Assembly (NCBI GenBank): GCA_031265235.1
Contig: JAISCX010000035.1
Span: 16,839 to 80,838 of the forward strand
Direction of reading: 5' to 3'
DNA length: 64,000 nt
Origin: Rickettsiales bacterium
Lineage (GTDB): Bacteria > Pseudomonadota > Alphaproteobacteria > Rs-D84
The position numbers and the translations under genes are program-made. Below are positions 21,675 to 50,886 of the stretch, in pieces. The notes below the pieces were generated by a model that ran no database searches, was not told the origin of the DNA, and worked only from the letters and a program-made list of their open reading frames with translations. Positions within the stretch are counted from its first letter, which is position 1, and each line of letters starts with the position of its first letter.

Positions 21675-21702
21675 AAAAAATCCGGCATTCGCCGGATTTT
21701 TT
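21675..21702. terminator. bidirectional rho-independent terminator
   Basis: aaaaaatccggcattcgccggatttttt between convergent genes. Confidence 0.6.
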
Positions 21703-23194
21703 ATTCCCCAAAATTATACCTGTTTTCTATATACAGTTCCGTTTTTGCGCCATTCGTATGTGAAAGCAGCCCGATGCCGTGCGGTATGCATTTATTGCTT
21801 TCGAATCTACACACGTTTGCCAATAAGTCGCCATTGTGCCGTATTACATACCAATCTGTTCCTGATGCCGCCGATGCCAGCACATTAAACTTATAACTGC
21901 TTGCTTTATTTTTCTCGATCTCTGCTTCTGAATATGTCGAGAATTTTTGCTGAACCCCGCCATTTGGTATTGTATAGTTGCCGGAATGAGACGAGTCTGC
22001 TGTCGCCGGTTCTATCTTATCCATGCAATCGCCAGCATTTGTTGCGGACGCGCAATAGTTTTTCCATTGGCTATAGGATGACAGAGTCACTTTGCCTTTG
22101 GAAATTATATCTTGTTCTGTTCTGTACGCATGGCCGTTGTCGTCCCAATACAAATATTCTTCGCATGCGGTCAGCTTTTTGCGTTCTTTGCCGATAGTGC
22201 TTTTATTGCTGGCAACGATTACGATTGATACCACGCTGGCGCCCGCGCCGACGCCCGCAGCAATTGTCGCACCCTTGTTCAGTCCGTTATTCAGACCGTC
22301 TTTTTCCTTGACTGCGTTTATGTTCCCGGCGCCGGACGCAATCGCGGACCCGGCGTTGGCCACGGCGCCGACAATCTGGAAAGTCTTTGCGGTTTTCAAA
22401 TTCTTTGCAGGTTTAGACACGTCGATGTTATTCGCGCATTTTGCTATTTCCATCATGGGATTGTTATCGCGTCCCTCTGTATGCGCCTGCATTGCTATTT
22501 CTTTGAATTCCTTGACTGCGCTGTTCCACTCGTTTGTTTTTGCATCGGCGAGATCATTTGCAACGCTGCCGATCACACTGACCGAAATCACGTTGGTGAT
22601 CAATCCGCCGGCCGCCGCGCCCATTCGCACCCAGTTCATGGTTTGGTTGAACCCGGCGTTGGAATCGTTCTTGTTGACCAGGTACGCGATCATCGCGTCG
22701 TTGGACACTTCCTTGCCTTCGCTGGTCTTGAATATGTCGTTTTTCAGATCGTCGCACGTTTTGGCCTTGATCGTTTTGCCGTCGGCGTCTTTGGAATCCT
22801 TATACGCGTCCGGGTTTTTGGATTTGTCAGCCGCGCAGTCTGCAGAGAAAGCCGATTCGAATTCTTTTTTCAGATCAGCGTCCGCCATCTTGGCCAGATC
22901 ATCCCCGTATTTCGCATCCGCGCGCGCGGACCTGGAATCCTTTATAATTCCGGTCGCGACAGCCGCGCCGTCAAGAATGACGCCGATAACGGACGCAAGC
23001 ATCGCGTTTGACAATTTTTTTTCTGCGCCGTATATGGAATCGAACAGCGCGTCGTGCTTGTCGCGCATGTTTTTGATCGCGCCCAGTTCGAAATCTGTCA
23101 TGTCGCCGTATGATTGCGCGTCGATCGGACGTGCCGCGAAAGCAGGTGTAATTAAAATTGCGGATAATAATCCGGAGATAATTTTTGTTTTCAT
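21701..23194 (-). CDS. hypothetical secreted Ala/Gly/Lys-rich protein (signal peptide MKTKIISGLLSAILITPAFAA)
   Basis: 497-aa ORF of low complexity with Cys pairs near the C-terminus. Confidence 0.6.
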   Translation of the reverse strand: MKTKIISGLLSAILITPAFAARPIDAQSYGDMTDFELGAIKNMRDKHDALFDSIYGAEKKLSNAMLASVIGVILDGAAVATGIIKDSRSARADAKYGDDLAKMADADLKKEFESAFSADCAADKSKNPDAYKDSKDADGKTIKAKTCDDLKNDIFKTSEGKEVSNDAMIAYLVNKNDSNAGFNQTMNWVRMGAAAGGLITNVISVSVIGSVANDLADAKTNEWNSAVKEFKEIAMQAHTEGRDNNPMMEIAKCANNIDVSKPAKNLKTAKTFQIVGAVANAGSAIASGAGNINAVKEKDGLNNGLNKGATIAAGVGAGASVVSIVIVASNKSTIGKERKKLTACEEYLYWDDNGHAYRTEQDIISKGKVTLSSYSQWKNYCASATNAGDCMDKIEPATADSSHSGNYTIPNGGVQQKFSTYSEAEIEKNKASSYKFNVLASAASGTDWYVIRHNGDLLANVCRFESNKCIPHGIGLLSHTNGAKTELYIENRYNFGE

Positions 23195-23271
23195 GTTATC
23201 CTTCCTTTACAGATATTATATCATGCTATCAATTTGAGTTCAACATATATTTGCTATCAAAATGCTGGCAA

Positions 23272-23520
23272 ATGAAAACGACCACCAAATCCATTTTCAA
23301 TCCGAAATACAAACGCCTGATTGACGATATGGTGGACGCGCGCAAGAAAAAGGGGTGGAGCCAGCGCGAGCTGGCCAAGCAGGCAGGCGTGTCGCATTGC
23401 TTTATCGGGCGCATGGAGACACGCGAACGTCGGCTGGATGTGATCGAGGCCGTCGAGATTATGAAGCTTTTGGGGTTGAGCAGGTCGATGATTCTTAAAA
23501 AAGTATCTGAATTGCTGTAA
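23272..23520 (+). CDS. XRE-family helix-turn-helix transcriptional regulator
   Basis: GWSQRELAKQAGVSHCFIGRMETRER is a typical HTH_XRE segment. Start at MKTTTKS. Confidence 0.7.
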   Translation: MKTTTKSIFNPKYKRLIDDMVDARKKKGWSQRELAKQAGVSHCFIGRMETRERRLDVIEAVEIMKLLGLSRSMILKKVSELL

Positions 23521-23596
23521 GCATGGCCGGCGCCCGCATTTTCTTGAAATCGTATAATAATTTGATAAACTATTTCCAAAGCCAAGGGATTATAAA

Positions 23597-24016
23597 ATGC
23601 ATATTGCCACCGTATCTGATATGCGCGCATGGGCGTGCGGGTTCGCAATGGGTCTGCGCGCGCCGCGCGCGGTCGCGCTGCACGGCGATCTGGGAATGGG
23701 AAAAACCGAAATCGCGCGCGCGATTATTCAAACGCTTTGCGGGTCGGATACCGTGGTGCCAAGCCCGACATTTACGCTGGTTCAGAGTTATGATGCGAAA
23801 TCCGGGGGAGACGCGACTCCCCGGATTTCGCATTTTGACCTGTATCGTATAACAGACGCGTCAGAGCTGGAAGAAATAGGATTATCGCACGCATGCGCGA
23901 ATGATATAACGCTTATAGAATGGCCCGAGATTGCGGAAAGCATGCTGCCCCGCGACACCGTTCATATTTATATCACGGCGGAAGGAGAAGGGAGGAAGAT
24001 AGAAATTAAAGAATGA
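23597..24016 (+). CDS. tsaE: tRNA threonylcarbamoyladenosine biosynthesis ATPase TsaE
   Basis: Contains GDLGMGKTEIARAI, PSPTFTLVQSY and HFDLYRI. A short palindromic insert (GGDATPRI) sits inside. Confidence 0.8.
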   Translation: MHIATVSDMRAWACGFAMGLRAPRAVALHGDLGMGKTEIARAIIQTLCGSDTVVPSPTFTLVQSYDAKSGGDATPRISHFDLYRITDASELEEIGLSHACANDITLIEWPEIAESMLPRDTVHIYITAEGEGRKIEIKE

Positions 24017-24092
24017 ATCCGCCAAATCGCTTTGCGGCGACGCATTGACTGCTTTGCTTTTTTACTTATAAAATCCGGCTTTGCCCGGATTT

Positions 24093-24722
24093 TTATTGCG
24101 GCAGCAACGATTGAACGGCAATCGCAAAGTCCGGCGCATTGGCCAGATAATTGCCGCTTACCAGAAAATCCGCGCCGGCGCGCCAGCATGCGGCCGCGGT
24201 ATCCGGGTTTATTCCGCCGTCCACGCTTATTTTGAATCCAAGGCCATACCTTTTGCGCGTGTTGTTCAATGCGAATATGCGGCCCAAAGCGGCGGCCAGG
24301 AATTCCTGGCCGCCCGCGCCGGGCACGACCGACATTACGAGTATCTCGTCAATCTCGCGCAGTATCGGCTTTAATATTTCGATCGGTGTTTCCGGATGCA
24401 GCGCGATTCCGGCGCGTTTGCCCCGCCGCTTGATTTCCGCGATCGCTTTCCGGACGCCCGCTGTTCCCGTTGAAAGTATTATCGTGTCCGCGCCTGCGTC
24501 CGCCGCCTGTCCCGCCCAGGATTCCGGGCTTTCAGTCATCAGATGCACATGCAGGTGCGCTTTCGTATGTTCGCGGATAAATTTCAATTCATCAATTCCG
24601 CCGGACACCGTGTCCACATAGAATCCGTCCATTATATCAACGTGAATCATAGAAACGCCGCCTGATTGAAAACGTGCGTATGTCGCGGGATCGCGCATGT
24701 TGAACGCAAGCGTGCTGGGCAT
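24093..24722 (-). CDS. rpe: ribulose-phosphate 3-epimerase (in the same reading frame as, and continuous with, upstream ftsA)
   Basis: Contains MIHVDIMDG, VMSVVPGAGGQEF and ISVDGGIN. Its ATG at 24722 overlaps an out-of-frame TAA (TAATG). Confidence 0.8.
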   Translation of the reverse strand: MPSTLAFNMRDPATYARFQSGGVSMIHVDIMDGFYVDTVSGGIDELKFIREHTKAHLHVHLMTESPESWAGQAADAGADTIILSTGTAGVRKAIAEIKRRGKRAGIALHPETPIEILKPILREIDEILVMSVVPGAGGQEFLAAALGRIFALNNTRKRYGLGFKISVDGGINPDTAAACWRAGADFLVSGNYLANAPDFAIAVQSLLPQ

Positions 24723-25880
24723 TATCGGGATAAATCTTTGTTTTTTCTTTTTCGGGAAAAGCTTTGAGAATGCGGATATGATTTTTGACAAGGCTTTTTC
24801 GCGGCGGTCGGATCGCGCCGCATATGTTCTGGCGAGCGGTTCCATCTGTTTCCAAATATATGATGCGTTCGCTTGGACCGCGGCTGCGGGACCGATGTTT
24901 TTGACGGGAATTCCGAACATGTTTGATACAAAATCGTCTATGCCCGTGATGTTCGCGCCGCCGCCGGACAGATATATTCGGACGGGCGCGTATTTTTGAA
25001 TCGCATTTTTTGTGGCATCGAACGCCGCCTGCAAGATTTCGGAAAGCACCGGAATCGCGATATCGTTCACGTCGCCTTTGGAAAAATCATGTTTGGAACT
25101 GGCCGGCGTAAACCTGTCCATATCGCCGCCGGATAGGGATATGTTCTCGCGTTTTATCTTTTCCGCAGCGTTGAAGGACAAATCAAGCCCGCTGGCGACG
25201 GAGTCGGTTATCGATGACTGCGCGTTCGGTATTTTTTTATAAAAAACCGGCCCCCTGCTTGTCCAAACCGACACGGACGTATGGCTTGCCCCAAGGTCCA
25301 GTAATACAGCCGGCTCTTTTTTTGGGCGCATTGTGCATGCGATTAAAAACGCCGGATCAAAAAAATCGCGCCCCATGATGTGCGCGGCGCGCGCGGCGCC
25401 GCGCACATCATTTATCCCGTCGGCATCATAGGCGATCGCGCCAAATGCCGCGGAAACATGCGTATCCGAAAGACCAACCGGCGTCGTGATATTTTGCAGT
25501 TCAAGCAGATCATAGCGCAGCGGAATTATATGCATCGGCGCGAAATAGGGCGATATTTCGGGAATTTCCGAAATCAAAGCATCAATATCGGCGTCCGATA
25601 TTTTATGTTCTTTGATCCAGTCTTTCTTTCTGACAAGCAAGATATATTCCAATGCGCCGAAATTTCCGGTGACATATGCGGAATCAAAGCGCGCGCCGAT
25701 GTCTGATTCTATCGCGTCGACGACAGTCCGGACCCCGGCGCCCGTATCGAACGATTCGCATGCGCGGATGGCGGATTTTGCAATGCGTCCGGACACTATG
25801 CGGAACCCTATCCCGCGAACCGCGGTTGTGCCGATGTCAAGACATAGAAAAGAGTTGTCGAATAAATTCATAATCAGCAA
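24723..25880 (-). CDS. ftsA: cell division protein FtsA (no in-frame stop; reads through into rpe as a 595-aa fusion ORF)
   Basis: Actin-fold motifs LCLDIGTTAVRG, LLDLGASHTSVSVW and IYLSGGGANITG. The C-terminal amphipathic segment is ALSKIISAFSKLFPKKKK. The gene lies downstream of ftsQ as in the dcw cluster. Confidence 0.75.
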
Positions 25881-25938
25881 TCGGCGACCGGTGGACGGTA
25901 ATCAGAGATCGAATTGCAGCAATGCCGATGATTGCCAG

Positions 25939-26637
25939 CTATCGATTGCCGATCACCACCAATGTTCTGTCCGAATCGCGCATATCTATGACAGATATTT
26001 TGCGGTTCAGTATAGAGTTCTGTTTTTGCAACGCGGACAATTTTGATATTGCCGCCTTGACCCCGGATCCGGGTAGGCGCACCGTAATTCCGGTTCTGGT
26101 CGCAAGATCCCATCTGCGGCCTTCGATCCAGGATAGCGTCTCTATTTCCGAAAATACGTTCGGTGTGTTTTTTATAATTTCTGCAATGTCCGCGATATTG
26201 TCCGGCAATACGCCCGAAAAAACAAGCATGCCCGCGTCCGCCGTATCCGCCGCCCTGTTCATTATTTTACCGTCCGCCGCCAGCGGATAGAATTTGCCGC
26301 CGTCCGTCCAGTTGGCGACAATTTTTCGCATGGTCAATTTGACTTCCATTCTTCCGTTCGGGTATTTGCGGATTGCCGCTTGGCCGACATCAGGCAATCC
26401 GGTTATTCTTGACAGGCAATCGTCCAGATCAACCGAATACGCGGATTTGCCGGGCTGCATCCGCAAGGCGTTCGCAATGTCGCCGGCGGAAGCGGTTCCT
26501 TTGGCCCGAACGGAAACAGGTCCGACGGGCGCAATATTCCCGATCCCCAATGCCGCCATTGAAATGCGCACGGACAGATACAGCGCGATCAGAATTGCGG
26601 ACGCAAACACCAGCCAAAACAGGATTGATTTTTTCAT
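25939..26637 (-). CDS. ftsQ: cell division protein FtsQ
   Basis: TM helix followed by a POTRA-like domain (start MKKSILFWLVFASAILIALYL). Position is upstream of ftsA. Confidence 0.8.
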   Translation of the reverse strand: MKKSILFWLVFASAILIALYLSVRISMAALGIGNIAPVGPVSVRAKGTASAGDIANALRMQPGKSAYSVDLDDCLSRITGLPDVGQAAIRKYPNGRMEVKLTMRKIVANWTDGGKFYPLAADGKIMNRAADTADAGMLVFSGVLPDNIADIAEIIKNTPNVFSEIETLSWIEGRRWDLATRTGITVRLPGSGVKAAISKLSALQKQNSILNRKISVIDMRDSDRTLVVIGNR

Positions 26638-26688
26638 AAACGGATTATAGCATAAAAAAAGCGCGAGTGTAAGCGCAAGTGACAAGTA

Positions 26689-27585
26689 TCAGAATGTCAT
26701 TTGTTTCACGGTGTGTTCTATCGAAAACTTTTTCGCGGCGTCCAAATTTTTCTTTTCGATAGCCGCGCGTTCGGAACCTGACATCGCCAAAACGCGAACC
26801 AGCGCGTGCCGAATGTCATCCGCGGTCGGGTTAACGGGCGGCCGTATGTTCGCACGAATCCCAAATTCATTGTCCGGCCATATTGTCGGCCGCCCTTGCG
26901 CCACCGCCGCCATCAGCAAGTCACGGTCGGCAGGCCCGATCGACATAACCGCATAGGTTGAACGCATAACGGTCGGCAAGTCCGCATCGTTTTTTATATA
27001 TATTGTTCTGAATTCCTGTCCGGACGCCTTTGTTTGCGACATTATTTTTCGTGCGTGCCGAACGCCCGAAAATCCATAGATGGCGATTACCAGATCTGGG
27101 TCGTCTATCCGTTTCATCGCGTCCAGCAAGGCGTTCAAACTTGCGCCCATCTGACTTATGACGACGATCATCTTTTGGTGCGGCGCGATATTGTATTCGG
27201 ACAAAAACCGCGTGATGCGCAGCACCGCTATGGAATTCGGCGAGAATAGGGCCAGGTCCAGCCCGAAATCAATCGGTTTTGACGACGCTTTCAGCTTCAT
27301 TCTGGCGGCCAGCTTGGCGGCCGGCATATCTATGGCATGTATGGCGTGCGGCCCGGATTTTAAAAATTCGCGGAATTTTCGCGACGGTATCAGGAATTCG
27401 CGCCCGAATATCTTGATTTTATAAATTTCGACATGCGGCACCCGCAGACGCCGCACAATGCCGTTTGACACAGGCGACGCGATTGCCGCGGAAAATCCGG
27501 ATTTTTGCAAACTGGTCGCCAATGTGGCCAATCCGCGCGAAACGTTGGACGTTACAAACAGAAAAGATTTGGGATTTGCTGTCAT
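26689..27585 (-). CDS. GT-B fold glycosyltransferase-like protein (possibly LpxB-like; uncertain)
   Basis: C-terminal half resembles GT1/LpxB C-domains (VVISQMGASLNALLDAMKRI ... AAVAQGRPTIWP). Start is uncertain. Confidence 0.4.
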   Translation of the reverse strand: MTANPKSFLFVTSNVSRGLATLATSLQKSGFSAAIASPVSNGIVRRLRVPHVEIYKIKIFGREFLIPSRKFREFLKSGPHAIHAIDMPAAKLAARMKLKASSKPIDFGLDLALFSPNSIAVLRITRFLSEYNIAPHQKMIVVISQMGASLNALLDAMKRIDDPDLVIAIYGFSGVRHARKIMSQTKASGQEFRTIYIKNDADLPTVMRSTYAVMSIGPADRDLLMAAVAQGRPTIWPDNEFGIRANIRPPVNPTADDIRHALVRVLAMSGSERAAIEKKNLDAAKKFSIEHTVKQMTF

Positions 27586-27659
27586 TTTAACTTTATAGAG
27601 CAATCGGGAGTATATTTTATTCTTATACTCTGCGCGCAAAGCGCGGCGTTAATCTTTTT

Positions 27660-28049
27660 TTACGCGGCCCGCAGCAGATATCCCTTGCGAAACATGCATT
27701 TTCGGTATGCGCCGACGGATTTGGACGCCGTATTCGGTGGGACCGACATCAGAACCCGCTGTCCGGTATCCATGAATTCATTGGATTGGAACGTTACCCA
27801 TAAGCCATCCCAGTCCGGCATCTGCGTCGCGGAATTCGGCATCAGCAGCTTTGAAAGGCGGGAACGCGGCATGTGCGACGGCTTTGTTATGCCCAGACAG
27901 TTCTTGTGGTCTTTTACGAATTGATCCGTTGTCACCATTTCGTTTTCCCAGTTCAGAACGGTGGCGTTGTCAATGCTGCCTAAATTCGGGCTGGCGCATC
28001 CGAAAAGGGCAAAGATCAGAGGGCAAAAAGCAAAAATACTGAATTTCAT
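27660..28049 (-). CDS. hypothetical lipoprotein
   Basis: Signal MKFSIFAFCPLIFALFGC with a lipobox. The longer 275-aa ORF is probably an artefactual extension. Confidence 0.5.
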   Translation of the reverse strand: MKFSIFAFCPLIFALFGCASPNLGSIDNATVLNWENEMVTTDQFVKDHKNCLGITKPSHMPRSRLSKLLMPNSATQMPDWDGLWVTFQSNEFMDTGQRVLMSVPPNTASKSVGAYRKCMFRKGYLLRAA

Positions 28050-28124
28050 AATCCGATTATAATTTAATTGCGTTACCGGGGCAATAGTTTTTATAATCAG
28101 GGAAAAGGGCAGAGGTGGAAGAGA

Positions 28125-28433
28125 ATGACGGACACGGAAAAATTTAATAACCTGGCTAATTTCTATGAGTATATGAAAACGGTTATGTCCGCCATATGCG
28201 TCAGCAAAGGCGGGATTCCGTTGGAAAATTATGCGGGGCGTTTTTTCGCGGCGGATGTCTTGGAAATGCTGAACGCGTACGGGGGCAAAATCGGGCGGGC
28301 GGACACGGCCATGGCGGCCAAGCTGGATAAATACAAGCAGGAATTTGCAAAAATGCGGGATATGGCGACGCCATCGCAAAAGCCGATACATGAAATGACG
28401 CTGGAAGAATTCGAAAAGGTTATGAATATTTAA
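28125..28433 (+). CDS. hypothetical protein
   Basis: AGGTGG RBS 8 nt before ATG (MTDTEKFNNLANFYEY...). Confidence 0.45.
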   Translation: MTDTEKFNNLANFYEYMKTVMSAICVSKGGIPLENYAGRFFAADVLEMLNAYGGKIGRADTAMAAKLDKYKQEFAKMRDMATPSQKPIHEMTLEEFEKVMNI

Positions 28434-28456
28434 CGCGCAAAGCGAGGTTAAATGTT

Positions 28457-28579
28457 CAAAGAGCAAAGAGCAAAGAACAAAGAGCAATAATGCCCTTGTC
28501 TTTATCCTTGCTTTACAACATAGGTTATAAAGATGAGAAAATATTATTTGTTCTTTGCTCTTTGCTCTTTACTCTTTGC
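28457..28579. repeat. heptamer-repeat palindrome: (CAAAGAG)4 ... (CTCTTTG)4 arms separated by ~50 nt
   Basis: Left arm at 28457-28491 and right arm at 28543-28579. The right arm overlaps the start and signal peptide of the 28533 gene. Confidence 0.7.
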
Positions 28580-29855
28580 TGCTGGCTGCGTACAACAGAT
28601 GCAAAACCGGGGACAGCCGATGTATGATGATGTTACGGTTGTCGAAAATCTGGTTATTGACGAACGGTCCGTGCCAATATTCCCGCGCAAAGCCGCGCTT
28701 ACGACCGATACCGCGCGTCGTTTTGCGCTGGATCTGCCGAAACGCTGCACGGTTGATTGGGACAATCAGCGCGTTTTATCCGTTCTGCCGGAAGAACGCG
28801 TGGAAATGACGCAATTGGACAAAGGCGACCCGCTGCCCGAATTTGCCGTTGAAAACTATTCCTTTGAAAAACTGACCGTCCGGGACGCGCTGGAAAAACT
28901 GCTTGCCGGAACGAATATCCGCGTGATAGAGGACGAGAATATCCCCGATAAAATCACCGGCACGATCAAATCCGGGGAACTGGCTGATGCCGTGGACCTG
29001 CTGGTCAGAATGGGCAAGGCATATTATTCTTATGACGACGCGACGCGCGATCTGCATATAGGGCGCCGGGCGCAATTTCTGATGAAAATGCCGAAAGATC
29101 AAATGATAATAATGGCGCTGATCGATGCGATGCGCGGAATGGGGATTGGAAACCTGATGGTCAACTGGGAAGACAAGACGCTTGCATTCGAAGGAAATTA
29201 CCAGACCGAACGCGAAGCGCGTCAGATAATCACCGATCTTGGCGCCCAAAAATATCTGATCGCATGGGATATTGACATATACCGCGTATATCCGCGGACG
29301 GATAATCCGATTATCTGGATGAACATGCTGCCTGCGCTGGGCGAAAAGAATATAAAAATGTCCATTCCGGGCGTCGTCGGGCGCGCGCTGGTCGTGGGAC
29401 CCGAAATAAATACCAAAACATTGCAGGAGTTTCTGGGCCAGCAGGCAAACGTGGTTCTTATTTCCCAGGGGACTTTCTCGATCCCGAACGGGTGGCAGTC
29501 GCGGTTTGACATCGGCCAATGTTCGCGCGAAGAACGTTTGGAAACAGACCTGATTGTCGGCGCGATCGGCAAATACGGCGACTATGCGGGGATGAAGAAA
29601 TTGGATACAAAGCTGGCGCTGCGAACGCATGCCGGGGAAATCGCGACATACCAGGTGCCCAGCACCATCGGCGACAATTATGTAATTATCGGGATTCCAA
29701 CGCATTCGTTTGTGCAAGGCACGGAAACATTGATATCGCCCTTTGCCGAGTTGGTCGTGTTCATGTCCCCCCGCATTATTTCAATAACAAATGGCGCCGC
29801 GGTGCCGGCGGCGGCGCTGTCGGGTCAGAACCTCCGGGACTATTTGGATGAATAA
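28533..29855 (+). CDS. outer-membrane lipoprotein with secretin-like C-terminus (putative)
   Basis: Lipobox LLFAAGC. The C-terminal VPSTIGDNYVIIGIPTHSF...AELVVFMSPRII resembles the secretin signature (VP.LGDIP..G.LF...ELLIFITPRI). Confidence 0.45.
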   Translation: MRKYYLFFALCSLLFAAGCVQQMQNRGQPMYDDVTVVENLVIDERSVPIFPRKAALTTDTARRFALDLPKRCTVDWDNQRVLSVLPEERVEMTQLDKGDPLPEFAVENYSFEKLTVRDALEKLLAGTNIRVIEDENIPDKITGTIKSGELADAVDLLVRMGKAYYSYDDATRDLHIGRRAQFLMKMPKDQMIIMALIDAMRGMGIGNLMVNWEDKTLAFEGNYQTEREARQIITDLGAQKYLIAWDIDIYRVYPRTDNPIIWMNMLPALGEKNIKMSIPGVVGRALVVGPEINTKTLQEFLGQQANVVLISQGTFSIPNGWQSRFDIGQCSREERLETDLIVGAIGKYGDYAGMKKLDTKLALRTHAGEIATYQVPSTIGDNYVIIGIPTHSFVQGTETLISPFAELVVFMSPRIISITNGAAVPAAALSGQNLRDYLDE

Positions 29856-29917
29856 GGTTGACAGTATGGAAAATGTTCCATATTTCGCGTCTTCATAATA
29901 AAGTTTAAGGTTTTTCC

Positions 29918-31171
29918 ATGTTTGCAAAGCTTGAAAAAAAAGTGGCTTTTCTATATCTGCGGGCCCGCGGCCGCGGATTCGGCAGCGTCATATCATGGGT
30001 GTCGCTGCTTGGCATCATGCTGGGGGTCGCGACGCTGGTCGTCGTTATGTCCGTTATGTCCGGATTTCATGACGCGCTGTTGTCACGCATTATCGGCATG
30101 AACGGACATGTCGTTGTATATCACCAGGACGGCGCGATAAAAGATTATGATTTTCTTATCGATAAAATAAAACAAAACAAAGTGGTCCGCGCGAATATGA
30201 TCGGCACAGTCCCCGTGTTAGAGGGCCAGGTCATGGTATCCGCGAACGGCACCAATTCCGGCGCCATGGTCCGCGGAATCCGCATGTCCGACCTGTCGCG
30301 TGTTTCCGGCGTCGGCACGAAAATATACGGAACTGAACTGAAAGACATAAAGGATGGCGAGCTGGTGATGGGAATGGCGCTGGCCCGCAATCTTAAACTT
30401 ACCATGAACGACACTGTGTCATTGATATCCGCGAACGGCGGGACGCCGACCGCGTTCGGCACCATGCCGCGGATGATGTCTTATCCCGTCCGTTCCACGT
30501 TCATGATGGGTATGTACGAATATGATTCCGGATATGTGTTTATGAATTTGGAAACGGCCCAGAAATACCTGAACGTGCCGGGCGGAGTGTCGCATATAGA
30601 CCTGTTCCTGAAAGACGCCGAACGGACGGCCGCGGTGCGCGACGCATTGCGCGATCTGTTGCCGGGCGGATTTATAGTGCGCGACTGGCGGGATCTGAAC
30701 CGCGGATTTGTCGGCGCGCTGCAAGTTGAATCAAACGTGATGTTCCTGATCCTTTTGCTGATCGTGATCGTCGCGGCGTTCAATATTGTATCAAGCCTTG
30801 TCATGCTGGTCAAAGACAAGTCGCGCGACATCGCGGTATTGCGCACGTTCGGGGTCCGGCGCAGCTCTATGATGAAGATATTCATTCTTGCCGGAACGTC
30901 AATCGGCGTTATCGGCGCGGTGTTCGGGACAATCTTGGGGCTGGTTATCGCCAAATATATTGAGCCGATCCGGAAATTTTTCCAGTGGGCGACGGGCCGC
31001 GATTTATTCCCGGCTGAATTATATTACCTGTCGGAACTGCCGTCCAAGATTGATCCAATATCGGTTGTCGGAATCGCGGTTGTCGCGGTCGCGCTGGCAT
31101 TCTTGGCGACGCTGTATCCCGCGTGGCGCGCGGCAAGGCTGGACCCGGTAGAGGTGTTAAGGAATGAATAA
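29918..31171 (+). CDS. lolE: lipoprotein-releasing system transmembrane subunit LolC/LolE (FtsX-like permease)
   Basis: 417 aa with an N-terminal TM, a large periplasmic loop and a C-terminal FtsX 3-TM bundle. Adjacent to lolD. Confidence 0.85.
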   Translation: MFAKLEKKVAFLYLRARGRGFGSVISWVSLLGIMLGVATLVVVMSVMSGFHDALLSRIIGMNGHVVVYHQDGAIKDYDFLIDKIKQNKVVRANMIGTVPVLEGQVMVSANGTNSGAMVRGIRMSDLSRVSGVGTKIYGTELKDIKDGELVMGMALARNLKLTMNDTVSLISANGGTPTAFGTMPRMMSYPVRSTFMMGMYEYDSGYVFMNLETAQKYLNVPGGVSHIDLFLKDAERTAAVRDALRDLLPGGFIVRDWRDLNRGFVGALQVESNVMFLILLLIVIVAAFNIVSSLVMLVKDKSRDIAVLRTFGVRRSSMMKIFILAGTSIGVIGAVFGTILGLVIAKYIEPIRKFFQWATGRDLFPAELYYLSELPSKIDPISVVGIAVVAVALAFLATLYPAWRAARLDPVEVLRNE

Positions 31172-48104: not shown

Positions 48105-48251
48105 ATCCGCCGCTGATTTTTAGATTAACGTTTAATATATCTTTATTTTTCTGACATTTCTGTTATAATTAACTTGTCGCAGGGTGTTCCCGCGGCGGGG
48201 GATGATTGCCCCTTTATTGGCGTCTATGAAGACGAAAAACTCCAGCCCGAC

Positions 48252-48345
48252 GGTTGGAGGGTTCGCGTTATACATTGAAAGCGCGACACAATTTCCAATA
48301 AATTGCAATCAACCTCCAACCGCCAATGTTTTGGTGGTTTTTTGT
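48252..48345 (+). promoter_or_regulatory. attenuator-like leader (paralogue of 6571-6689) upstream of large Cys-rich secreted protein gene
   Basis: ggttggagg (48252-60) is complementary to cctccaacc (48313-21), which overlaps the terminator aaccgccaa-tgtt-ttggtggtt-tttttt (48318-48345). The terminator core accgccaat is shared with the 6663 terminator. Confidence 0.4.
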
Positions 48346-48360
48346 ATAAAAGAATATATC

Positions 48361-50886
48361 ATGAAAAAAATTTTGATATTTTCAACGTTGTGCATGACGC
48401 TTGCTTTCGGCGCGCGCGCCGACGACTGCATCATGGACCAGTTTCTGGGTACAAAGATTTCCTGCAACGACAGCTGTGCCGGCGATTGGGAAATGAAATG
48501 GGGCGCGGTGTCATTCGGTCAATGCCCGTACGGCCAGATGCGGGAATGCTATGAGCAGCGCCTGCTTATCGGCGTCAACGACAAATGGACGGCGTGCAAG
48601 AACCGTGGCAGCTCTGGCCGCAGTTTTGTATGTCCCAATGCGCCGGACGAATTGCCCCTATATGCAACGACCAAAGGCGTTGCTAACATGCTTGACAAGG
48701 CTCACCCGACGACTTGGTGGGACGGTACTGTATCTTATAACAGGACGTATCTCGCGCTGACCAAAGCGAACAATAATAACTGGTGCTGGACATTTGAATG
48801 CCCGTCGGACAAGCCGTGGCATCTTTGGCTTGACGGCAGAAATGAGTGCGTCGCCGCATGCGGAGACGCGGGCGCCTATGCCCCTTATGGCGAACACACT
48901 TGCGGCCATTGCAGACAGAATTCTGACTATAGACTTGCAGACGGCAAATGCATAAGAAGACAAAACTACGACTATAAAGGATGCTATCAAAGAGTTAATG
49001 CTGTGCTGAAATCCGTCAGTCTTGGCGAAGACGTCAACGGTTTCTGCATACCGTCGGAAATTGATCCTAAAATGTCCCGTTATGCCATAATGGTGGGGGG
49101 CCAGCTTTGGCAAATACCGCTTTCGATAGAAAAAGAAAATGATATGTTGATGGCGTTAGGATGGACAGATTATAAAAAAGATGCCCCATGGTGCTGGGCT
49201 GAAGAAAAGATGAAGGAACCGAAAAAAAACGGTTTCAAAAAAATCCCAAGATGCAAAAAAAGTACAAGTTCCGCCGCATCGGCCGCGATGGTCGCAGGCA
49301 ACTGCATAACCGATCCGTTCTCCCAGAAAAACATCTGTTGTAATAATGACACCCTTTACAGCACGTCTTTTTACGGCTGCGAATATCCAAATCTGACATG
49401 GTGCGGACAAGACGGCAAATGGTCGGATTGCGGCATTGCGACCGTCGGTATAATTGGGACGGACGGAAAAGACATTGCCGGGATATGCACGATTGATAAC
49501 CTGAATACAGATTTGTATGAGTATGAAAAGCACCAGAATGGCAAGGCGAGTTTTTCATTCAAGAACAACAAACTTATGCATAATGTCTGCTGGGATTCGG
49601 TGCAGCCCAAGGCCGAAAGCAATATGTACCGGAGGTCTGGAACTCTATCGGATGGAACCGATTGTGAAGCAAAATGGGCGAACAAAGACAAAACCAAGTG
49701 CGTTGATCGTTGCGAAGATTCTATTATTTACGCATCAGATATTGATTCCGAACAAAAATTTGTCTGGGTGGCAAAAGATGACTGCGCTGGATTTTACTGC
49801 GCCGACGAAGCTGGAAATCCGGATCCGAATCTTGTTTGGGATTATTTTGTTGAAAAGCATAACAATAAAATAAAGTGCACGTCAAAAGATAGAACAGATA
49901 ACTCGCAACAGTCGGGAGAATCCACCAAGAAAGAACAGGAACAGAGGGAAACCGAAGAAACGCGGCTAGCAAATGAACGTGAATCGGCGCGTCTGGATCG
50001 AGAACGCGAGCAAAAACTCGCCGCCATAGAAACCATGATAACATCGCACACTAAAACAATGTCAGATATCAAATCCGCGCATGCGGGCGACAAGGTCAGC
50101 GCCTGGAAGACTGCGGACGGGAATTTCAACGGCGCGCGCTTGGCGTCCGATTCCATCGCGGGCGCCGCAATCGGCACGCTGGGCGGCGTCATCACGTTCA
50201 ACATCATAAAGAAAAACCAAATAAACAATGGATTCGACGACCTGGATTGCGTTGTCGGGGGTGCGGGAACGGCCAATGTAGGGGCGCCCCTACAAATAAC
50301 TATCAGCTGGGGGGACGTGTTCATGATATCCGGACCCACAACCAAGAAAGACTGCGAAGCGGCGTCAAACGGCCGGAACAATATCTTTGTCTGGGCGGCA
50401 AAGACCGGCACGGGCGCGGATTATGCGACTTTACGCGAAGACATGAAAGACACGGCGAATAATGCGTGCTGGGTCCGTGTTGATATCATATCGAAAGATC
50501 CAAACATCAATACGGATCTGATGAAGCCACGATGGTTTATGACGGGCGCCCGGGAAACATGCGGCGGTTGGCTGGACGAGAATTTTGTGCGGCAAAAGAT
50601 ATTGGACGCGAAAAAGACAAAGCGGACATGGGGGACTGTGGCTGGCGCGGTTGGGGGCGCGGCGGTTGGCGTCGGCACCATGGAATTGTTTGGGAACAAG
50701 CTGATCGGCGGCAAGGTGATGGGCCAGAAAGCATTAAAGGAAGAAGAGCTGTTGCGGAGCCAGATATTGGCAGGTCCCGGCGGTGCGGCGGAATGGACAC
50801 GGTATGAATCCGCAAAAGCAGGACTGGCCGCCGCATGCAATGAATTGCGCGCAGCGGGCGGGAAATTGCCGAAAGAGTGCGAATGA
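48361..50886 (+). CDS. large secreted cysteine-rich protein with Glu/Arg-rich coiled segment and Gly-rich C-terminus (hypothetical surface/effector-like)
   Basis: Signal MKKILIFSTLCMTLAFGARA, then more than 40 Cys in the N-terminal 550 aa. TKKEQEQRETEETRLANERESARLDREREQKLAA is a charged helix, and the C-terminus is a GxxxG-rich hydrophobic segment. Confidence 0.6.
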   Translation: MKKILIFSTLCMTLAFGARADDCIMDQFLGTKISCNDSCAGDWEMKWGAVSFGQCPYGQMRECYEQRLLIGVNDKWTACKNRGSSGRSFVCPNAPDELPLYATTKGVANMLDKAHPTTWWDGTVSYNRTYLALTKANNNNWCWTFECPSDKPWHLWLDGRNECVAACGDAGAYAPYGEHTCGHCRQNSDYRLADGKCIRRQNYDYKGCYQRVNAVLKSVSLGEDVNGFCIPSEIDPKMSRYAIMVGGQLWQIPLSIEKENDMLMALGWTDYKKDAPWCWAEEKMKEPKKNGFKKIPRCKKSTSSAASAAMVAGNCITDPFSQKNICCNNDTLYSTSFYGCEYPNLTWCGQDGKWSDCGIATVGIIGTDGKDIAGICTIDNLNTDLYEYEKHQNGKASFSFKNNKLMHNVCWDSVQPKAESNMYRRSGTLSDGTDCEAKWANKDKTKCVDRCEDSIIYASDIDSEQKFVWVAKDDCAGFYCADEAGNPDPNLVWDYFVEKHNNKIKCTSKDRTDNSQQSGESTKKEQEQRETEETRLANERESARLDREREQKLAAIETMITSHTKTMSDIKSAHAGDKVSAWKTADGNFNGARLASDSIAGAAIGTLGGVITFNIIKKNQINNGFDDLDCVVGGAGTANVGAPLQITISWGDVFMISGPTTKKDCEAASNGRNNIFVWAAKTGTGADYATLREDMKDTANNACWVRVDIISKDPNINTDLMKPRWFMTGARETCGGWLDENFVRQKILDAKKTKRTWGTVAGAVGGAAVGVGTMELFGNKLIGGKVMGQKALKEEELLRSQILAGPGGAAEWTRYESAKAGLAAACNELRAAGGKLPKECE

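Follow-up and report, generated by a model that had tools for sequence, protein, structure and literature searches.

In canonical FtsA, the actin-fold protein of the division machinery, the 1C (SHS2) subdomain replaces subdomain 1B; the protein binds the C-terminal peptide of FtsZ and brings in the late divisome proteins. Canonical ribulose-phosphate 3-epimerase (Rpe) is a soluble, free-standing oligomer that interconverts ribulose 5-phosphate and xylulose 5-phosphate. Some metabolic enzymes act on the division machinery, namely UgtP in Bacillus subtilis, OpgH in Escherichia coli, and GdhZ and KidO in Caulobacter, and these bind FtsZ reversibly. In reduced endosymbiont genomes, transcriptional slippage at homopolymers rescues frameshifted genes. 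The present locus is that of a Rickettsiales bacterium of the order Rs-D84, in which ftsA and rpe occupy one open frame whose junction is a run of adenines. We analysed this locus in a 64-kb stretch of contig JAISCX010000035.1 (assembly GCA_031265235.1, positions 16,839 to 80,838), hereafter the window. The original prediction had offered three readings of the joined frame: a genuine FtsA-Rpe fusion protein, a homopolymer sequencing error, or a gene that depends on slippage at the adenine run. We conclude that ftsA and rpe are very likely truly fused in frame, that the fusion is ancient and has been stably inherited, and that it encodes one two-domain protein of 592 residues.

Results

One open frame across the junction

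Read directly from TTG at 25880, the minus strand of 24093..25880 is one continuous frame of 595 codons, as had been described. It contains two Pfam domains, FtsA (PF14450, 4.3e-11, residues 192-331) and Ribul_P_3_epim (PF00834, 2.5e-45, residues 388-578). A 1.8-kb open frame with two such matches is far beyond chance. Because all relatives begin with MNL(F)D, translation most likely starts not at the TTG but three codons downstream, at ATG 25871. This gives a protein of 592 residues, which is identical to the NCBI entry MDR1207578.1, 'ribulose-phosphate 3-epimerase [Rickettsiales bacterium]'; its numbering is used below. The frame includes the motifs CLDIGTTAV, LLDLGASHTSV, LSGGGANITG and ISAFSKLFPKKKKQRF, and both the three motifs reported earlier (DIGTT, DLGASHTSV and SGGGANITG) and the FtsA tail of C-terminal type preceding Rpe were found where they had been placed.

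The junction (ccgAAAAAgAAAAAAcaaagatttatcccgaTAATGccc, 24755..24717 of the minus strand) starts with the codons of a basic linker (Table 1), which run on into ttt atc ccg ata atg, 24755..24720 in all. It holds an A5-G-A6 tract (A5 at 24752-24748, A6 at 24746-24741) and, shortly after, a TAATG at 24724-24720. The ATG of the latter (24722-24720) is residue 387 counting from the TTG and 384 counting from the ATG start. Removing one A in silico turns the end of the FtsA half into ...PKKKNKDLSR*, with a TAA that overlaps this ATG, so the frame-1 translation bears out the overlap that had been expected from a one-base deletion in A6. It is this tidy stop/start overlap that speaks for a sequencing or assembly error, in which the true tract would be A5 and the window would encode separate ftsA and rpe genes overlapping at TAATG.

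Conservation among relatives

Of 5.8 billion protein clusters searched, 764 matched, and the best 120 are described here. They are 49-100% identical to the query, and nearly all have 587-602 residues, cover 99-100% of the query and carry both Pfam domains. Four of the 120 are shorter (539-574 residues, 90-97% coverage), probably through truncation or a start called too far downstream. We also scanned genomes, taking one per species, and obtained 80 loci that match over residues 1-592. In all 80 the junction and both domains lie within one open frame, 588-619 codons long. The loci come from metagenome-assembled genomes (MAGs) of the gut of termite, ruminant, horse, chicken and human, many of them named Candidatus Enterousia (GTDB order Rs-D84). 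The window itself was recovered a second time: Logan contig L001 (run SRR14710921), an independent assembly from the same organism, equals positions 21727..29950 without a mismatch and has the same A6. Contigs with an identical copy of the Ca. Enterousia orthologue P0063 turned up in 340 blocks of the collection. A few records with the fusion gene (L013, L023, L031, L044 and L079) carry Bacteroides fragilis or 'uncultured Muribaculaceae bacterium' in the title, probably a sign of binning contamination or mislabelled MAGs.

The orthologous locus thus shows the same fusion in relatives, which makes it a stable one, and the first of the three readings is strongly supported by a frame that is open in all of them. 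A sequencing error, on the other hand, is at odds with the open frame of 80 other species' genomes and of more than 120 protein clusters, and with the identical tract of the independent assembly. The reduced-genome context invoked for the locus was correct: order Rs-D84 and the other reduced-genome lineages studied with it have genomes of 0.67-1.6 Mb (PMC12306168).

The depth of the family was assessed by searching the FtsA part alone against 1.84 billion representatives. Full-length matches better than ~1e-13 nearly all have 542-623 residues, and the shorter ones (65-487 residues) look like fragments. Ten matches from the weaker end (1e-13 to 9e-49) were scanned with Pfam, and all ten have an Rpe domain, even where the FtsA part is as little as 25% identical. 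Since ordinary FtsA, of ~410 residues, appears only at ~1e-12, the fusion must be old. When deep members were used for a profile search, whose reach the word index limited, P0138 was the sole deep member to come back.

Some much deeper members of the family lack the FtsA nucleotide-binding motifs. One deep member found outside the window, P0134 (589 residues), has lost the equivalents of Rpe residues H410, D412 and D551 (it reads FYTTIMDG and VCGD), as well as the DxG, DxG and GGG motifs of FtsA, and is very rich in Lys, Asn and Ile. Its sequence would fit either a gene decaying in a genome reduced to an extreme degree or a remnant whose role is purely structural.

The supposed start of rpe

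We compared the codon at the supposed rpe start, the ATG of the junction, in 81 distinct genomes, i.e. the 80 species' genomes and that of the window. The residue is Met (ATG) in 41 of them, Leu in 36 (TTA 19, TTG 15, CTG 2) and Ala in four (GCG 3, GCA 1). TAATG itself occurs in just 7 of the 81. In the alignment with Rpe of Streptococcus pyogenes (2FLI), PIMPSTLAFN faces KIAPSILAAD, which puts Met384 opposite Ala7, in a strand that starts at Lys5. Met384 is therefore an internal residue of strand 1, and the residues just ahead of it are already part of the Rpe domain. These residues are conserved in the fusion frame: FIPI(M/L)PST is among the best-conserved motifs of the protein, and P382 and T387 are invariant in an alignment of 33 homologues.

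An internal rpe start at Met384 was accordingly rejected, both for the Leu or Ala that replaces Met in 40 of the 81 genomes and for its place within the strand. On these counts TAATG simply arises where a conserved Ile-Met is written ATA-ATG, and the view of the poly-A as lying one base from a normal, meaningful stop/start junction does not hold. The rarity of TAATG, the missing Met and the conserved residues 5' of it also count against the sequencing error, to which we give practically no chance of being right: a homopolymer error is refuted by the comparative data.

The adenine runs

Runs of at least five As occur in the junction of 73 of the 82 sequences examined, the longest being A8. This frequency, and the reduced genomes of the lineage, a setting in which slippage rescue has been described, favour programmed transcriptional or translational slippage on the A-run, which would give an FtsA-only product beside the fusion or instead of it. 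Yet, slippage is unneeded where the zero frame already codes for the full conserved protein, as it does in the window and in the 81 related loci (the 80 species' genomes and contig L001), in none of which the genomic frame is interrupted. The A-runs arise because the conserved polybasic linker is rich in Lys codons, which account for them. Species differ in the longest run within the linker, which measures between 1 and 8 and is at most 4 in 25 of the 82 sequences, and the frame is never broken.

A selected frameshift product was looked for in the positions of the stops that follow the A-run in the shifted frames. The first stop comes at a median of 28 codons after the loss of one base, vs 12 at random positions of the same genes, and at 14 vs 10 codons after the gain of one. 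Shifted-frame stops are thus nowhere closer than background, and they are farther after a one-base loss. Programmed frameshifting was rejected as a candidate given that conserved nearby stops of this kind are lacking, and the family does not show a conserved slippery tract coupled to a conserved shifted-frame stop. Finally, A6 falls short of the tract lengths at which efficient slippage is known. The idea of a slippage-dependent gene is contradicted by these data and we regard it as most improbable. As the locus illustrates, Lys and Ile-Met codons can by pure coincidence leave a poly-A at a gene junction one base from a neat stop/start.

The FtsA half

The N-terminal half carries all three nucleotide-binding motifs of FtsA: phosphate-1 (DIGTT), phosphate-2 (DLGASHT) and adenosine (SGGGAN). 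Among the 33 homologues D192, G194, G303 and G304 are invariant, and D12, G14 and G305 are present in at least 90%. In a Foldseek comparison with the PDB, the top matches of the N-terminal ~375 residues were all FtsA (3wt0, 3wqt, 1e4g, 7q6i and 4a2a, from Staphylococcus aureus, Thermotoga maritima, Vibrio and E. coli), with E-values down to 1e-25 and TM-scores of 0.70-0.77 normalised to the target. The half passes the cut-off of PF14450 (43.7 vs 31.8 bits) and misses those of the NCBIfam equivalog TIGR01174 (62.2 vs 175.85 bits) and of PRK09472 (20 vs 409). Pfam SHS2_FTSA is matched in relatives and not in the window protein, so the presence of a 1C subdomain in the latter rests on the fold matches and on the relatives. 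By its scores, the half is a very divergent FtsA.

The Rpe half

The C-terminal half passes the cut-offs of PF00834 (154.8 vs 21.1 bits) and of the NCBIfam subfamily NF004076 (179 vs 165), and misses the equivalog cut-off of TIGR01163 (163.5 vs 212.6 bits). Foldseek aligns it with 2FLI at 38% identity over 208 residues (TM-score 0.92, rmsd 1.5 A, E-value 1e-41). His34, Asp36, His67 and Asp176 of the S. pyogenes enzyme, which we take to be the metal and catalytic residues of Rpe, align with H410, D412, H443 and D551, and these four are invariant in the 33 homologues. The Met cushion, i.e. the Met residues of the MDG, HLM and MSV motifs, is also kept and is invariant in the clade of the window. 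This best solved match comes from a Firmicute; proteobacterial Rpe structures, from Neisseria, Pseudomonas and Stenotrophomonas, score lower (27-32% identity), and the Rpe half may not be of alphaproteobacterial origin.

In species pairs ~91% identical, the ratio of non-synonymous to synonymous substitution rates (dN/dS) is 0.06-0.07 for the FtsA core and 0.04-0.06 for Rpe. Such low values point to strong purifying selection on both halves and indicate that each is kept as a functional unit. Most reduced genomes of Rs-D84 and of family UBA1242 have the genes of the non-oxidative pentose-phosphate pathway except transaldolase (PMC12306168), a report with which a fused Rpe serving as the working rpe would be consistent.

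The protein collection holds other Rpe fusions as well (P0277, P0280 and P0287), whose partners are thiamine pyrophosphokinase, AP_endonuc_2 (xylose-isomerase-like) and a PASTA domain. Rpe seems prone to fusing with gene neighbours.

Helix and linker

Between the two domains lies the amphipathic helix KALSKIISAFSKLF, which resembles the C-terminal anchor of FtsA and is a putative internal membrane helix. The helical hydrophobic moment reaches 0.70 in the window and a median of 0.67 in the 33 homologues, ranking at the 99th percentile within each protein; for comparison, the value is 0.62 in the membrane-targeting sequence of E. coli FtsA. The last 25 residues before the Rpe domain have a median net charge of +8 across the family. 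AlphaFold2, run with the 33 homologues, gives a model of mean pLDDT 90.3 in which both domains are confident. It extends a helix over residues 330-371, with confidence dropping towards its end, and gives residues 372-377 a pLDDT below 50.

One might speculate that the gene is fused and the proteins nevertheless separate, either through cleavage in the basic linker or through initiation at Met384 where it is present. The disorder of the linker fits this idea, as do the dN/dS of helix and linker (0.17-0.35 in the same species pairs), higher than that of the domains, and the in-frame ATG that the window genome has at the site. Yet, a usable start is missing at this position in half of the family, and the product initiated there would miss the first residues of strand 1 as seen in 2FLI. 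Beyond the basic character of the linker, no conserved cleavage motif is apparent in its alignments. Moreover, the long-term conservation of the frame would be needless if the products were meant to be separate. We thus consider separate products very unlikely.

Genomic neighbourhood

The features of the locus are given in Table 1. The order ftsQ followed by the fusion is shared with Ca. Enterousia (L084) and with the deep relative L082, whose FtsA part is 27% identical and whose gene order is ftsI-ftsQ-fusion-rpmB. A convergent tsaE next to the fusion is likewise found in Ca. Enterousia. The original prediction had remarked on the absence of ftsZ downstream of ftsA, and this holds as far as our searches reached: tblastn with E. 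coli FtsZ found none in the 64-kb window (E<=1), and none within +-10 kb at 81 loci (the 80 species' genomes and L001), a result that shows non-adjacency only. The called-gene tables of L082, L084 and L085 list no FtsZ/tubulin family, and no search with an FtsZ query was made at these three.

Table 1. Positions of the fusion gene, its parts and its neighbours in the window.
Feature	Position	Strand	Basis and remarks
Complete fused gene ftsA::rpe	24093..25871	-	592 aa; stop TAA 24095-24093
FtsA actin-fold ATPase core, residues 1-345	24837..25871	-	Pfam PF14450, Foldseek, motifs
Amphipathic helix KALSKIISAFSKLF, residues 359-372 (14)	24756..24797	-	Counterpart of the FtsA C-terminal membrane-targeting helix, here internal
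Polybasic disordered linker PKKKKQR, residues 373-379	24735..24755	-	ccg aaa aag aaa aaa caa aga; holds A5 and A6
Ribulose-phosphate 3-epimerase TIM barrel, residues 380-592	24096..24734	-	First strand FIPIMPST, Met384 inside the strand
ftsQ	25939..26685	-	Directly upstream of the fusion; Pfam FtsQ_DivIB_C 1.4e-12
tsaE	23597..24016	+	Pfam TsaE 1.3e-31; convergent with the fusion gene, at the usual place of ftsZ after ftsA
Inverted repeat AAATCCGG-gcaaag-CCGGATTT, perfect 8 bp, 6-nt loop	24071..24092	.	Sequence read; right after the fusion stop, between the convergent genes

The inverted repeat is a possible shared terminator of ftsA::rpe and tsaE; a scan with consensus terminators did not report it. 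In a scan of 23500-26800 for promoters and terminators the counts were not above shuffled expectation, and nothing notable was found between the two halves of the gene. Directly upstream of ftsQ, at the usual place of ddl in the division cluster, lies an open reading frame (ORF) of 316 residues (26689-27639, minus strand). It has weak sub-threshold matches to a GT4-like domain and to a segment of cyanophycin synthetase, and the Logan gene call at the same place has 304 residues and no Pfam match.

The rest of the window is ordinary chromosome, with gyrB, aspS, an asmA-like gene, an FtsX/MacB-type permease, rsmI, mltA, recA, mnmE and typA. Many ORFs have no family match, and several long ones have no Pfam match at E<=0.001 to 0.01, e.g. 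21701-23194 of the minus strand (497 residues), and 28533-29855 (440 residues) and 48184-50886 (900 residues) of the plus strand. The ORF of 440 residues adjoins the FtsX/MacB-type permease, and Ca. Enterousia has the same pair, with a gene of 446 residues. Reduced genomes of this kind encode many hypothetical membrane proteins (PMC12306168), and the unmatched ORFs of the window fit that description.

Discussion

We showed that the open frame joining ftsA and rpe is shared by every relative at hand, that neither the adenine run nor the TAATG behaves as a gene boundary, and that both halves evolve slowly. How might such a protein work? The amphipathic helix and the basic stretch, which normally end FtsA, may still bind the membrane. 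The FtsA part would then be a divisome membrane anchor that holds an active epimerase within ~10 residues of the membrane. The most probable origin of the fusion is a lost ftsA stop codon, in a genome that was being reduced and in which ftsZ had already left its place downstream of ftsA; a need for both activities may explain why the fusion persists. Genome reduction is expected to bring about gene fusions, and a special mechanism is not demonstrated here.

Several points weigh against this interpretation. All sequences come from MAGs of uncultured organisms, and the fusion protein is known from genes alone. The FtsA half scores far below the equivalog cut-off of its family. A second ftsA, a second rpe or a distant ftsZ elsewhere in these genomes would lie outside the reach of our searches. 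Membrane binding by the internal helix and epimerase activity are both predictions. The pTM of the AlphaFold2 model is 0.60, which leaves the relative placement of the two domains undefined. Finally, post-translational cleavage in the linker would be invisible in the sequence.

Alternatively, FtsA might have taken up Rpe as a module with a structural or regulatory role, e.g. as a handle for oligomerisation or as a pentose-phosphate sensor tying division to nutrients. The fusion has been kept across very deep divergence (FtsA-part identity down to 25%), and the deep member P0134 retains a full-length Rpe domain without both catalytic Asp and one His. Rpe enzymes are also oligomeric, and UgtP, OpgH and GdhZ provide precedents for regulation of FtsZ ring formation. 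But the clade of the window shows no variation in the four catalytic residues or in the Met cushion, with a dN/dS as low as that of a working enzyme, and catalysis alone could explain why the domain is retained. P0134, one sequence only, lacks the ATP-binding motifs of FtsA too and may simply be decaying, and regulation is not directly evidenced. Such recruitment is therefore unlikely in our view.

A bolder version would make the Rpe barrel an integral part of the divisome anchor in Rs-D84 and its deeper relatives, acting as a platform for the oligomerisation of FtsA filaments on the membrane or as a pentose-phosphate sensor, with catalysis perhaps dispensable. As a sensor, it might gate division on the nutrient supply from a partner organism. 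That catalysis could be dispensable is hinted at by the one deep member that keeps an Rpe domain without the catalytic residues. An integral Rpe could also accompany an unusual or missing FtsZ, a thought suggested by the fact that ftsZ was never found next to the ftsA part of the fusion at the loci searched. We consider this version decidedly improbable, and retain the fusion of a divergent FtsA with a presumably active epimerase as the preferred reading.

Full-text searches for literature linking FtsA and Rpe, or an epimerase, in a fusion found no relevant paper, and those on Enterousia and Rs-D84 gave genome-survey papers only. Each half belongs to a well-known family; it is their combination that is new. 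Hundreds of database entries name the fusion as Rpe only (e.g. MDR1207578.1, and HIS70590.1 / UniRef100_A0A9D1FFP0). Inventories based on names thus miss the ftsA of an entire order of gut Alphaproteobacteria, at the risk of wrongly concluding that these reduced genomes have no FtsA.

Comparison with known systems

Relative to canonical FtsA (TIGR01174; 1E4G and 4A2A of T. maritima, 3WQT of S. aureus, 7Q6D of E. coli), the fusion keeps the actin-like fold, the three nucleotide motifs, the position of the gene directly after ftsQ and an amphipathic basic helix after the core. It differs in being just 16-18% identical to the solved structures, in a core ~40 residues shorter, and in the absence of ftsZ downstream. 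The presumed membrane helix is internal, being followed by an enzyme domain of 213 residues, a position that the FtsA helix apparently tolerates. Compared with Rpe (PF00834; 2FLI), the barrel, the His/Asp/His/Asp set and the Met residues of MDG, HLM and MSV are the same. Yet, the fused half has no N-terminus of its own, its strand 1 running on from the FtsA linker, and some of its substrate-loop motifs differ: it reads MDGFYVD where MDGxFVPN is usual, and SGNYLA where two aligned solved Rpe enzymes have AGSYLF or AGSAVF.

With the homopolymer-dependent genes of endosymbionts the locus shares a lineage of reduced genomes and A-rich tracts within an essential gene. The difference is that here the frame is intact and conserved, and the tract is short (A6) and varies freely in length without frameshift.

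The fusion joins a core divisome protein covalently to an enzyme of the pentose-phosphate pathway, naturally and over a long time, and it provides a ready-made test of whether central metabolism and division are physically coupled in organisms with minimal genomes. In common with UgtP, OpgH, GdhZ and KidO, it brings an enzyme of central metabolism into physical association with the early divisome. UgtP and the others are separate proteins whose regulatory action has been demonstrated, whereas in the fusion, for which regulation is a proposal, the association is covalent and is made with FtsA.

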